Below, piece after piece: positions 32,096 to 47,000 of a stretch of 64,000 bases of DNA. This stretch comes from Escherichia coli (GTDB lineage: Bacteria; Pseudomonadota; Gammaproteobacteria; Enterobacterales; Enterobacteriaceae): the NCBI RefSeq assembly GCF_016903815.1, contig NZ_CP069973.1. One strand, given 5' to 3'. The position numbers were made by a program. The first letter of the stretch is position 1; each line of letters opens with the position of its first letter.

Positions 32096-35000
32096 TCAGA
32101 ATTAACTTAACTGTGAATCATGATGTTTTTAGCATCCTGATAAGAGCTAAAAGTTTTAACGCTACGTTGTTCGATGGTCAACGCAACGAAAAACAATTCA
32201 GATTTTCTTTATAAGAATAGCTGATATTTATTAAGTTAATATTAAGCAGTGAAATTTAGTCTATAAGATAATTGGCAAAAATAAATATCCTCCGGCATAG
32301 CCGGAGGTTTTTCAAATGCGCCTATAAGGCTCTCTTACCAGCCGCGCCCTAACAGGCGCACACGATCTGACATTTGCATCCAACTTCGTTACTTACGGCC
32401 CGTAAACGGGCTGCCCGGATAGGGAATCGATAACTGCTCTCCCATTTTATCCTCTTCAAGCTGGTGCTTTATGTAATCCTGTATCTTCGCCGTGTTCTTA
32501 CCCACTGTATCGACGTAGTACCCTCTGCACCAGAACTCCCTGTTCCTGTATTTGAATTTCAAATCACCAAACTGCTCGTAAAGCATCAGACTGCTTTTCC
32601 CTTTCAGATATCCCATAAACCCGGATACGCTCATTTTGGGCGGGATCTCCACAAGCATATGGATATGATCTGCACAGCATTCAGCTTCCAGAATCCGTAC
32701 GCTTTTCCACTCACACAGCTTTCTCAAAATACTGCCTATTGCTCTACGCTTCTCTCTGTAGAACACCTGTCTTCGGTATTTTGGCGCAAAAACTATGTGA
32801 TATTTACAGTTCCATCGGGTGTGCGCTAAGCTCTTTTCGTTCCCCATTGGGACCCCCTTTTGATTTCTTGTTTGACACTTGCAGTTGCCAGACCGCAAGG
32901 TGTTTTAACAAATCAAAAGGGGTTTTAATAACTGGCTCAAAGCTGAAAGCTTTCCGGAACCCCCAGCCTAGCTGGGGGTTTTCTGTGCACAAAAAAGCCC
33001 GGCGCAATATACGCCGGGCCTCAATTTTATTGTTGGTTAAATCAGATTAATCCAGCCATTCGGTATGGAACACACCGTCTTTATCAATGCGCTTATAAGT
33101 ATGCGCACCGAAATAGTCACGCTGTGCCTGGATCAGGTTCGCAGGCAGAACAGCGGCACGGTAGCTGTCATAATAGGCAACCGCAGCGGCGAAGGTCGGA
33201 ACCGGGATACCGTTCTGTACTGCATATGCGACGACATCGCGCAGCGCCTGCTGGTAGTCATCGGCAATTTGCTTGAAGTACGGAGCCAGCAGCAGGTTAG
33301 CGATCTGCGGATTTTCGGCATAAGCATCGGTGATTTTCTGCAGGAACTGCGCACGGATGATGCAACCAGCACGGAAAATCTTAGCGATTTCGCCGTAATT
33401 CAGATCCCAGTTGTACTCTTCAGACGCCGCACGCAGTTGAGAGAAACCCTGAGCGTAAGAAACGATTTTACCCAGATACAGCGCACGACGAACTTTCTCG
33501 ATGAACTCACCTTTGTCGCCAGCTGGCTGCGCTTGCGGGCCATAGAGAACTTTAGATGCGGCAACACGCTGCTCTTTCAGAGAAGAGATATAACGTGCAA
33601 ACACAGACTCGGTAATCAGCGACAGCGGTTCGCCGAGATCCAGCGCGCTCTGGCTAGTCCATTTACCGGTACCTTTGTTAGCCGCTTCATCCAGGATCAT
33701 ATCAACCAGGTAGTTACCGTCTTCATCTTTTTTAGTGAAGATGTCTTTGGTGATGTCGATCAGGTAGCTGCTCAGTTCACCGTTATTCCACTCGGTAAAG
33801 GTCTGTGCCAGTTCTTCGTTAGAAAGATTCAGGCCGCCTTTCAGGAGAGAATAGGCTTCAGCAATCAGTTGCATATCACCGTATTCAATACCGTTGTGAA
33901 CCATCTTCACATAGTGACCTGCGCCATCGGCACCAATATAGGTAACGCATGGCTCACCGTCTTCAGCTACTGCGGCGATTTTGGTCAGGATCGGTGCAAC
34001 CAGTTCATAGGCTTCTTTCTGTCCGCCAGGCATAATGGAAGGACCTTTCAGCGCACCTTCTTCACCGCCGGAAACACCGGTACCGATGAAGTTAAAGCCT
34101 TCTGCAGAAAGCTCACGGTTACGACGAATGGTGTCCTGGAAGAAGGTATTACCACCATCAATGATGATGTCACCTTTATCGAGGTATGGCTTAAGGGAAT
34201 CAATAGCAGCATCCGTGCCTGCACCTGCTTTCACCATTAACAGGATGCGACGAGGCGTTTCCAGAGATTCAACAAACTCTTTCACCGTATAGTAAGGAAC
34301 CAGTTTCTTGCCTGGATTTTCAGCAATCACTTCTTCAGTCTTCTCACGGGAACGGTTGAAAATAGAGACGGTATAACCACGGCTTTCGATGTTGAGCGCA
34401 AGGTTGCGCCCCATCACTGCCATACCGACTACGCCGATCTGTTGCTTTGACATTGTTTACTCCTGTCAGGGAAAATTTCTTATAGTAAATGTTATATTAT
34501 AAAAGACTATTCTATTTTATCAAAAAGAATAACTAGATAGGTAATAATTAATCATCTGAATATCCATTGGGGTTTTGCACTTGCCATTTCCAAGCATCTC
34601 GAATCATATCAGCTAAATCTTTTTTAGCTCTCCAATTTAATTCTTCATAAGCTTTTGAAGGATCTGACCAACATTCAGCGATGTCACCGGGACGCCTACC
34701 AACAAATATATGTGGTACAGCGACATTTGTTATTTGTTCAAAAGTTTTTATTAAGTCAAGAACCGAATAACCTTTTCCAGTACCTAAATTATAGATCTTA
34801 CAATTCTCCCCTTCATTCGATGCCTTTACCGCTGCAACATGTCCTTCGGCAAGATCCATAACATGAATATAATCACGCACACCAGTACCATCATGGGTAT
34901 TATAATCATTACCGAAAATATGAACCTCATTGAGTTTACCTATTGCGGTTTGGCAAATATATGGCATAAGATTATTAGGTTTTCCTCTTGGATCTTCCCC

Positions 35001-44000: not shown

Positions 44001-47000
44001 CAGTAGAGTGAACATCAAGAGCAATCAAATTACCCAAAGGTGCCAGCGCACGCTGTAGTTCCCAACCTACCTGCCCTGTTTTGCCGAAAAGGAGGATATT
44101 CATTACTGGCGGCCCTCATAGTTCTGTTCAATCCACGATTGATAGGCACCACTTTTCACATTATCAACCCATTTTGTATTGGACAGGTACCATTCCACTG
44201 TCTTCCGAATCCCGCTCTCAAACGTTTCCTGTGGTTTCCAACCCAATTCGCGGCTAATCTTCTCAGCATCAATCGCATAACGGCGATCATGTCCCGGGCG
44301 GTCGGCAACATAAGTAATTTGCTCACGATAAGATTTCTCTTTCGGTACAATCTCATCCAACAAATCACAAATAGTGAGCACTACATCGATGTTTTTCTTT
44401 TCGTTGTGTCCACCAATGTTATAAGTTTCACCCGCTTTACCTTCGGTTACGACGGTATATAACGCACGCGCATGATCTTCAACATACAGCCAGTCACGAA
44501 TTTGATCCCCTTTGCCATAAATAGGTAATGCCTTACCTTCCAGAGCATTAAGAATTACTAGTGGAATCAATTTTTCCGGAAAGTGATAAGGACCGTAGTT
44601 ATTCGAACAGTTAGTCACAATGGTCGGTAAACCATAGGTACGTTTCCACGCGCGGACTAAATGATCGCTGGATGCTTTTGATGCGGAATAAGGGCTGCTT
44701 GGCGCGTAAGCTGTCGTCTCAGTAAATAAGGGTAATTCTTCGTTATTATTTACTTCATCTGGATGAGGCAAATCACCATAGACTTCGTCAGTAGAAATAT
44801 GATGAAAACGGAAGCTATTTTTCTTGTCGCTATCAAGAGCAGACCAGTAATTGCGAGCGGCTTCCAAAAGGACATAAGTACCAACAATATTGGTTTCAAT
44901 AAATGCCGCAGGACCTGTAATTGAACGGTCAACATGGCTTTCAGCAGCCAGGTGCATCACTGCATCCGGCTGATGCTGAGCAAAAATCCGTGCCATTGCA
45001 GCAGCATCGCAAATATCCGCATGTTCAAAAATATAGCGTTCAGAATCAGAAACATCAGCAAGTGATTCCAGGTTTCCGGCGTACGTTAATTTATCGACAT
45101 TAACAACACTATCCTGCGTATTATTTATAATGTGACGAACTACAGCAGAACCAATAAATCCTGCGCCACCAGTAACAAGTATCTTCACTCTTTTATTCCA
45201 TATTACTTCAGAGCATGCAGTGAAATAAGCGGCTCTTAGTTTGATTAATAGAGGTATTAATGCACGCTACCGCCCCTGGCTTTACTGCTACCAGTGCACT
45301 GCATGCATGTCTACGATGTGACGAGCGTTACCCACTCGCGCTTAGCTCGAAAAATTCAAACGCTAATTGTCTTACCAATCCGCTCTGGAAACAAGGAAAA
45401 TCCTGGAAAACTTTGACTAAAATCCTATTGCTAACTCGTTGTTATTCTGATTGTTTATATAAAACAACGGCAGGAATATTCGCAGCAAATTACTTTCGCC
45501 ACGAATCTTCACTGCCGTTATAATTTTCTTATCAACCGTTACATTCGGTCAGATTTTCATTATTCGCTTAACAGCTTCTCAATACCTTTACGGAACTTCG
45601 CCCCTTCTTTCAGGTTGCGCAGTCCATACTTCACAAACGCCTGCATATAACCCATTTTTTTACCGCAGTCGTAGCTGTCACCTGTCATCAGCATGGCATC
45701 AACGGACTGTTTTTTCGCCAATTCAGCAATGGCATCAGTCAGTTGAATACGTCCCCATGCACCAGGCTGAGTGCGTTCAAGTTCCGGCCAAATATCGACA
45801 GAAAGCACATAGCGACCAACGGCCATGATGTCTGAGTCCAGTGTTTGCGGCTGATCCGGTTTTTCGATGAATTCAACAATGCGGCTGACTTTACCTTCGC
45901 AATCCAGCGGTTCTTTGGTCTGAATAACAGAGTATTCAGAGAGGTCACCCGGCATACGTTTTGCCAGCACCTGGCTACGACCCGTTTCGTTGAAACGTGC
46001 AATCATGGCAGCAAGGTTGTAGCGCAGCGGGTCGGCGCTGGCGTCGTCGATCACAACGTCTGGCAGCACCACGACAAATGGATTGTCACCAATGGCGGGT
46101 CGTGCACACAAAATGGAGTGACCTAAACCTAAAGGTTCGCCCTGACGCACGTTCATAATTGTCACGCCCGGCGGGCAAATGGACTGTACTTCCGCCAGCA
46201 GTTGGCGCTTCACGCGCTGCTCAAGGAGAGATTCTAATTCATAAGAGGTGTCGAAGTGGTTTTCGACCGCGTTCTTGGACGCGTGAGTCACCAGGAGGAT
46301 TTCTTTGATCCCTGCAGCCACAATCTCGTCAACAATGTACTGAATCATTGGCTTGTCGACGATCGGTAGCATCTCTTTGGGTATCGCCTTAGTGGCAGGC
46401 AACATATGCATCCCAAGACCCGCTACCGGTATAACTGCTTTTAAATTCGTCATTATTTTCCTACCTCTAAGTGGCTGATAGTGCGTAAATTATTGTCATA
46501 GGTTAGCCAAACGGTATGGCTATATACCAAGCATAACTTTGATTAAACCTTACGATAACACTACACACCATCAGCATCTGGGTTACTCGGATTACTCGGA
46601 AATCCACATACTGATAATTTAATCAGTACCTCATTCCGAATAATCGTAGTCCAACCTGGTCCTTTTTTCTCTGACTCGTCTGCATTACTCAGAAACAAAC
46701 GTTATGTCGTCTTTTTTGGCATGGACGAATTCATACTGCAGAGTTCGATCCAGACCTTGCGACAGCGTATACGGTGCCACAAAACCTGAAGAATGCACTT
46801 TCGTTGCGTCAAACTGTGTTGTTGCGCAGAATTTTTTCACGCGCACAGAGCTGACAGCGTATTTTTTGCCCGTAATTTTGCTCAGGATATCAAAGCAATA
46901 TCCACCCAGCATTCCTAGTGGGTAAGGCAAGTGCATAGAAGGGATCTTTTTGTTCAGGCTTTGTTCAACTTCAGCAACCAACTGGTTCATGTTCAGGTCT

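Follow-up and report, generated by a model that had tools for sequence, protein, structure and literature searches.

The 342-residue protein encoded between wzx and wzy in the Escherichia coli O102 O-antigen gene cluster belongs to the WaaS/CpsH glycosyltransferase family and is a probable L-rhamnosyltransferase

In a 64,000-nucleotide stretch of Escherichia coli DNA (contig NZ_CP069973.1 of assembly GCF_016903815.1; hereafter, the window), an O-antigen gene cluster occupies positions 34548-45188 and includes, between the genes for the O-unit flippase (wzx) and the O-antigen polymerase (wzy), a gene for a 342-amino acid (aa) protein, hereafter X (39436-40464, minus strand). An earlier interpretation of this DNA, made from the sequence alone (hereafter, the sequence-only reading), considered X unclassifiable and implied that the cluster was new. 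We found that this is the cluster of E. coli serogroup O102, which is already known, and that X is a member of the WaaS/CpsH family of glycosyltransferases, with a predicted GT-B fold and an association with rml genes in its clade. X is very likely a glycosyltransferase of the O-unit and, in what we consider the best reading, held with moderate confidence, an inverting alpha-L-rhamnosyltransferase dependent on deoxythymidine diphosphate (dTDP)-L-rhamnose. The cluster itself is not new, and the one point left is precisely which reaction X, as a member of a little-studied GT-B family, catalyzes.

Identity of the O-antigen gene cluster

The entire 10,641 bp region is 100% identical at the nucleotide level to the corresponding locus of ~105 complete E. 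coli genomes, in which RefSeq names both wzx and wzy as "O102 family", and because of this identity, we assign the cluster to O102. In other genomes, the O102 cluster is likewise located between galF and gnd, its genes are arranged in the same order and nothing inside it differs, and the boundaries annotated by RefSeq in an independent genome, that of strain 1579, are identical to those in the window. The structure and the gene cluster of O102 were published in 2012 (Perepelov et al., Carbohydr Res 361:73, as cited in PMC7685785), and the O102 unit contains a two-residue side-branch (PMC7685785). The sequence-only reading was correct in calling an rmlBDAC-type Wzx/Wzy cluster distinct from that of K-12, but the implied novelty of the cluster did not hold. 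It also stated that nothing new would be left if X matched a well-characterized glycosyltransferase of a known O-serogroup; the gene indeed lies in a known serogroup cluster, but we found no biochemical characterization of the enzyme.

O102 is the O-antigen of widespread multidrug-resistant extraintestinal E. coli lineages, with sequence type ST405 being typically O102:H6. The genomes listed as 100% identical come mostly from human isolates, and the two for which the source was checked originate from blood and urine. Correct assignment of each transferase matters for glycoconjugate vaccine design, phage-receptor work and in silico serotyping. The residual value is small, X being one of four O-unit transferases, in a large family that has neither a Pfam model nor a solved structure.

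Family, predicted fold and conservation of X

The NCBIfam profile NF053598 (WaaS/CpsH family glycosyltransferase) matched X with 162 bits, against a cutoff of 60, and the alignment is practically complete, with residues 11-328 of 342 covering profile positions 8-317 of 318. This family name already appears in the newer RefSeq annotations of X, and most records list a hypothetical protein. The WaaS (RfaS) protein of E. coli K-12, an inner-core L-rhamnosyltransferase, scores 179 bits with the same profile, and a Pfam scan yielded no family at E<=0.01 for X and likewise none for WaaS. The sequence-only reading that X carries no assignable motif is thus accurate with respect to Pfam but not to NCBIfam, and the protein can be classified. 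A sequence search of the Protein Data Bank (PDB) with X found no relative even at E<=10.

The similarity between X and WaaS is confined to the C-terminal half, where BLASTP aligned 152 aa at 30% identity (E=7e-20); the N-terminal halves gave no BLASTP alignment. An AlphaFold2 model of X, built with 57 homologs (pLDDT 91.7, pTM 0.88), consists of two alpha/beta halves, that is, the two Rossmann-like domains separated by a cleft that define the GT-B fold. In a Foldseek search against the PDB, the model matched GT-B glycosyltransferases (BshA, tll1591, GtfC, SpnP and WaaG) with a TM-score of ~0.5. The identity of X to solved GT-B enzymes of the GT4/GT20 type, namely, PglH/WlaC (6eji), PimA (2gej), BshA (3mbo), an OtsA-like protein (5v0t) and WbnH (4xyw), is only 7-12%, and, unlike GT4-type enzymes, X lacks the Pfam Glycos_transf_1 domain; no GT2 or GT4 model matched it. 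X is soluble, with no transmembrane (TM)-like segment, in contrast to Wzx and Wzy, which have eight each.

The conserved motifs of the family are an FD doublet in the N-terminal domain followed by GxDKGR, GQxGxTxRxxEA and NKKLITN, and X contains them all (F135, D136, G181, K184, R186, Q251, G253, R257, E260 and N265-T270). It shares GxDKGR, GQxGxTxRxxEA and NKKLITNN with K-12 WaaS, in the half of the protein that corresponds to the donor side. The invariant residues cluster in the C-terminal domain, whereas the N-terminal domain retains only the near-invariant F135 and D136. Conservation of the C-terminal domain combined with divergence of the N-terminal one is the pattern expected if the members of a GT-B family use the same type of donor but different acceptors, although the roles of individual residues are only predicted.

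The gene for X is present in 105 of the 5426 complete E. coli genomes, only in those of O102, and is at least 98.9% conserved in all 105. Two of these genomes, NZ_CP044403.1 (H58) and NZ_CP139853.1 (H57), show length differences in the gene (1-1021 at 98.9%; 1028/1029 bp). In NZ_CP044403.1, no coding sequence is annotated under the match, and X may be a pseudogene in this strain.

The family to which X belongs is large, with 6,659 clusters at 50% identity detected at E<=1e-3 and 5,939 at E<=1e-10, and typically includes soluble proteins of roughly 310 aa, nearly all of which are annotated as hypothetical. A profile search of named proteins for the family returned only "RfaS" and "hypothetical", and genetic work on WaaS is the sole functional anchor of the family.

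Genomic context, phylogeny and the sugar donor of X

According to two reviews from the originating laboratory, WaaS is the rhamnosyltransferase that adds rhamnose (Rha) after the WaaZ-dependent third 3-deoxy-D-manno-oct-2-ulosonic acid (Kdo) residue in core glycoforms of K-12. The O102 cluster makes dTDP-L-Rha and therefore needs at least one rhamnosyltransferase. None of the other three glycosyltransferases of the cluster reaches a rhamnosyltransferase model in NCBIfam, and the WbbL-type model TIGR01556 (cutoff 200.55 bits) does not match X either, the best score in the cluster being 18.7 bits, for the 245-aa GT2 enzyme.

A homolog 49% identical to X, in locus L003, is encoded in a fully syntenic rmlBDAC-wzx-X-wzy-GT2-GT4-GT2 cluster of another species, which lacks glf. 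We rejected the possibility that this cluster represents another E. coli serogroup among the complete E. coli genomes, given that a megablast search of these yielded no match. Two homologs from Bacteroidota are encoded directly after rml genes. A different context was found in Burkholderiales (Ideonella-like), where lipopolysaccharide (LPS) core loci contain glf directly followed by a WaaS-family gene (L004:8873-10954 and L007:2081-4174); GT9 and GT25 genes are located in the vicinity, and rml is missing from the surrounding 10 kb. By analogy with these glf neighbors, some WaaS-family members may use UDP-galactofuranose (UDP-Galf) as the donor. One more homolog, in locus L010, adjoins genes for a TagD-like cytidylyltransferase and LicD.

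A scan of a genome collection with one genome per species, queried with a 22-sequence subset and hence biased to members with the NKKLIT[ND][ND] motif, detected 64 further family loci. About 20 of these (31%) have rml within 10 kb, and glf was found within the same distance in five, with rml present as well in four of these. Enterobacterial waa loci, which encode WaaS orthologs and for which rml is expected elsewhere in the genome, account for six, and ~35 show no rml, glf or waa context. In a neighbor-joining tree of 71 family members, bootstrapped with capped Kimura distances, X and its L003 homolog group together with 99% support and are joined by the homologs from L005/6 and L011 with 71% support; WaaS belongs to a different, well-separated clade. 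The clusters of all four members of the X clade carry rml, and glf is found only in L005/6 and L011.

In these two glf-bearing clusters, the gene directly upstream of the X homolog encodes another protein, hereafter Y (321 aa, L005:2820-3785; 327 aa, L011:8937-9920; 46% identical, E=2e-103), with the motif GNHPGKDRFPREAA. Y is absent from both the window and L003 and belongs to no Pfam or NCBIfam family; neither the L005 nor the L011 version of Y resembles the K-12 Galf-transferase WbbI, so a WbbI-like identity was rejected for both. Within the X clade, Y tracks glf and X tracks rml, and we regard Y as a candidate galactofuranosyltransferase belonging to an undescribed family.

Homology to WaaS, the presence of rmlBDAC in cis and the rml-linked clade are the observations from which rhamnose transfer by X is predicted, in agreement with the guess of a "rhamnosyl or other transferase" made in the sequence-only reading. 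Several considerations weigh against this assignment. The evidence considered here for the function of WaaS comes from reviews of genetics and mass spectrometry rather than from an in vitro assay. The fraction of family loci with rml nearby is not clearly above that for any polysaccharide glycosyltransferase and may not exceed the background for polysaccharide loci. The glf-adjacent members from Burkholderiales and the one with TagD and LicD neighbors indicate that the donor may differ between family members. The usual rhamnosyltransferases of O-antigen clusters belong to GT2 and GT4, and the three enzymes of these types in the O102 cluster could cover rhamnose transfer. Finally, the tree was constructed by neighbor-joining from very divergent sequences, and the 71% support for the extended X clade is moderate.

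Alternative functions of X

If the GT2 and/or GT4 enzymes add rhamnose, X would be an O-unit glycosyltransferase with a UDP-sugar donor, that is, galactose (Gal), N-acetylgalactosamine (GalNAc), glucose or N-acetylglucosamine (GlcNAc), perhaps acting on a rhamnose acceptor, a plausible alternative to which we give clearly less credence than to rhamnose transfer. It would fit the fact that most known O-antigen rhamnosyltransferases belong to GT2 and GT4, along with the heterogeneous contexts of the family and the ~60% of its loci without rml or glf within 10 kb, but WaaS, to which alone in the family a function has been assigned, transfers rhamnose, X and WaaS are conserved in the C-terminal domain, predicted to bind the donor, and the X clade tracks rml. 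A further precedent, if it belonged to the same family, would be streptococcal Cps2H, a UDP-Gal-dependent beta-1,4-galactosyltransferase that acts on Rha (PMC13126196). The biochemically characterized Streptococcus suis Cps2H is a protein of ~56 kDa with a TM helix, unlike the soluble family members of ~310 aa, and no Streptococcus locus was detected in the scan; this protein is therefore an unlikely member of the family and an unlikely origin of "CpsH" in its name.

The other functions considered for X are far less probable. A non-Leloir activity, with X being a phosphotransferase of the GT-B fold or another modifier, for example, a TagF-like glycerophosphotransferase, is improbable: TagF is among the weaker Foldseek matches (rank 28) and L010 has its TagD-like and LicD neighbors, but sugar transferases rank highest among the fold matches, genes for CDP-alcohol synthesis or cytidylyltransferases are missing from the O102 cluster, and WaaS adds a sugar. 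Still less probable is a galactofuranosyltransferase, notwithstanding that in L004 and L007, glf directly precedes the gene for a family member and notwithstanding the presence of glf in the related clusters L005/6 and L011, because a tblastn search with Glf found nothing in positions 29001-51000 of the window and the O102 cluster lacks glf, as does the syntenic L003 cluster, whereas in the glf-bearing relatives, glf co-varies with Y, a different protein. The hypothetical annotation in most RefSeq records and the unannotated match in NZ_CP044403.1 could be taken to indicate that X is the remnant of a gene without function or, in AT-rich DNA, a spurious annotation; however, this interpretation is effectively refuted by the full-length family match, the confidently predicted fold and the ortholog in the same position in the cluster of another species, as well as the complete motif set and the conservation in 105 genomes.

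A tentative possibility is that the donors of WaaS/CpsH enzymes differ by lineage, with L-Rha being used by X and WaaS, and possibly Galf by the Burkholderiales members in core loci. WaaS, a product of the waa core operon, has Kdo of the lipid A-core as its target, whereas X, encoded between wzx and wzy, must act on an O-unit linked to undecaprenyl diphosphate (Und-PP). If donors are indeed lineage-dependent, X would be the first family member with demonstrated activity on an Und-PP-linked O-unit instead of the lipid A-core, and a convenient soluble, serogroup-specific model enzyme for the mechanism and the donor code of the family.

A proposed pathway for O-unit assembly

Transcription of the cluster runs along the minus strand, starting from the JUMPStart/ops leader. 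RmlBDAC produce dTDP-L-Rha and the GalE-type epimerase a UDP-galacto sugar, and initiation of the unit, as Und-PP-GalNAc, is expected to involve both Gnu and WecA, the gene for which lies elsewhere. Four cytoplasmic glycosyltransferases would then extend the unit, the fourth being X, a soluble, two-domain GT-B enzyme, after which Wzx would flip the completed unit and Wzy would polymerize it. For X, we infer the donor sugar, catalytic residues, linkage and acceptor as follows. The C-terminal domain, including the GxDKGR loop, the GQxGLTxRxxEA helix and the NKKLITN strand, would bind the nucleotide sugar, whereas the divergent N-terminal domain with F135-D136 would bind the lipid-linked acceptor; L-rhamnose would be moved from dTDP-beta-L-rhamnose with inversion, resulting in an alpha-L-rhamnoside in the O-unit. 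In this respect, X would differ from most solved GT-B enzymes of the GT4/GT20 type, which retain the configuration.

Organization and composition of the cluster

The cluster lies between galF (45560-46453) and gnd (33047-34453) and comprises eleven open reading frames (ORFs), all on the minus strand, with coordinates exactly as previously reported from the sequence alone. Pfam, NCBIfam and RefSeq support the transcriptional order rfbB-rfbD-rfbA-rfbC-wzx-X-wzy-GT2-GT4-GT2-galE, and inspection of the sequence reproduced the four overlaps already described, namely, wzx/X (ATGGTAA, 7 nt, 40458-40464), X/wzy (20 nt, 39436-39455), and two ATGA overlaps (38325-38328 and 37396-37399). In addition, rmlB and rmlD overlap by 1 nt (TAATG at 44103).

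A JUMPStart sequence with the ops element of RfaH (45263-45300, minus strand) is located 79 nt upstream of rfbB and identifies the end of the O-antigen operon nearest the promoter; the ops octamer GGCGGTAG is exact at 45267-45274, and the sequence around it reads AGTGCACTGGTAGCAGTAAAGCCAGGGGCGGTAGCGTG. The role of ops in control by RfaH has been described (PMC6358824). Two further exact matches to the octamer, at 58257-58264 and 3261-3268, lie outside the O-antigen leader and are probably fortuitous; at least three matches per window were obtained in 12 of 100 shuffles, so the three observed are within chance.

The first four genes encode the enzymes of dTDP-L-rhamnose synthesis: dTDP-glucose 4,6-dehydratase (rfbB/rmlB, 44103-45188; NCBIfam PRK10084, 798.6 bits against a cutoff of 649), dTDP-4-dehydrorhamnose reductase (rfbD/rmlD, 43204-44103; Pfam RmlD_sub_bind, 365 bits), glucose-1-phosphate thymidylyltransferase (rfbA/rmlA, 42268-43146; Pfam NTP_transferase, 274 bits) and dTDP-4-dehydrorhamnose 3,5-epimerase (rfbC/rmlC, 41715-42263; Pfam dTDP_sugar_isom, 257 bits), each carrying the same rfb name in RefSeq. 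Both membrane components of the Wzx/Wzy pathway are present and, judging by their TM-like segments, polytopic. The flippase gene wzx (40458-41708) encodes a protein that matches Pfam Polysacc_synt with 107 bits and is named "O102 family O-antigen flippase" in RefSeq, and the product of wzy (38325-39455), named "O102 family O-antigen polymerase", scores 27.6 bits with Pfam Wzy_C, below the cutoff of 31.7. Then follow the genes for a 310-aa GT2-family glycosyltransferase (37396-38328; Pfam Glycos_transf_2, 131.9 bits), a 350-aa GT4-type glycosyltransferase (36347-37399; Pfam Glycos_transf_1, 112 bits, with PglH-like and WaaB-like NCBIfam matches below the cutoffs) and a 245-aa GT2-family glycosyltransferase (35606-36343; Pfam Glycos_transf_2, 112.9 bits, with a TuaG-like match of 206 bits, below the cutoff). 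The cluster ends with a separate low-GC gene, annotated as galE in RefSeq, for a GalE-type UDP-hexose 4-epimerase that would supply UDP-Gal or UDP-GalNAc (34548-35567; PRK10675, 461.6 bits against a cutoff of 394; TIGR01179, 451.8 against 262); the syntenic L003 cluster lacks this gene. Upstream of galF, RefSeq annotates gnu, for the Und-PP-GlcNAc 4-epimerase (46685-47680, minus strand), and, under the rule that the presence of gnu implies GalNAc as the first sugar (PMC7685785), the O102 unit would start with GalNAc.

Like O102, the O16 rfb cluster of K-12 is located between galF and gnd, employs the Wzx/Wzy pathway and begins, at the 5' end, with rmlBDAC and then wzx. As the sequence-only reading noted, the remaining gene content differs: the K-12 cluster contains glf, wbbH (wzy), wbbI (Galf-transferase), wbbJ (acetyltransferase), wbbK and wbbL (a GT2 rhamnosyltransferase gene interrupted by IS5), whereas O102 has X, a different wzy, GT2, GT4, GT2 and galE, with neither glf nor an acetyltransferase gene.

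The description of the cluster as very AT-rich compared with its flanks applies to the block from galE to wzx, in which the GC content of individual genes is 0.27-0.34, with the lowest value, 0.273, in X. It does not extend to rmlB, rmlD and rmlA (0.43-0.47), with rmlC at 0.35; gnd and galF are at ~0.50 and the whole window at 0.483. Within the rml block (41715-45188), the GC content thus drops in a step between rmlB/D/A and rmlC. Parts of the cluster, when used as a query, match 2641 genomes at 80-95% identity; ~2,500 genomes other than those of O102 match only in part, and these partial matches are taken to be the shared rml genes. Together with the GC step, they are consistent with a recombination junction between the shared rml genes and the serogroup-specific core. 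A mosaic in which the shared rml genes have a higher GC content than the low-GC, serogroup-specific core is normal for the O-antigen loci of E. coli; given this pattern and the partial matches elsewhere, we rejected horizontal transfer as a novel feature of this cluster.

Insertions in wzzB and next to gnd

The window contains no intact gene for the chain-length regulator WzzB. An IS1203-like element of the IS3 family (29094-30403, minus strand; 1,310 bp), 99.8% identical to an annotated copy of IS1203, is inserted ~370 nt after the start of wzzB, leaving fragments at ~28484-29093 and 30402-30774. The flanks are 100% identical to the intact wzzB of the O102 strain 222, with a 5-bp overlap between their two alignments that probably represents a target-site duplication. 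None of the complete RefSeq genomes contains this exact insertion, and wzzB is intact in the other O102 genomes. The isolate would have lost normal control of the modal O-chain length, and the insertion could affect serum resistance and serotyping. A second mobile element, an IS200C-type tnpA (32389-32898), is located between gnd and ugd; the O102 strain 1579 carries it at this site as well, and it is probably lineage-wide rather than strain-specific.

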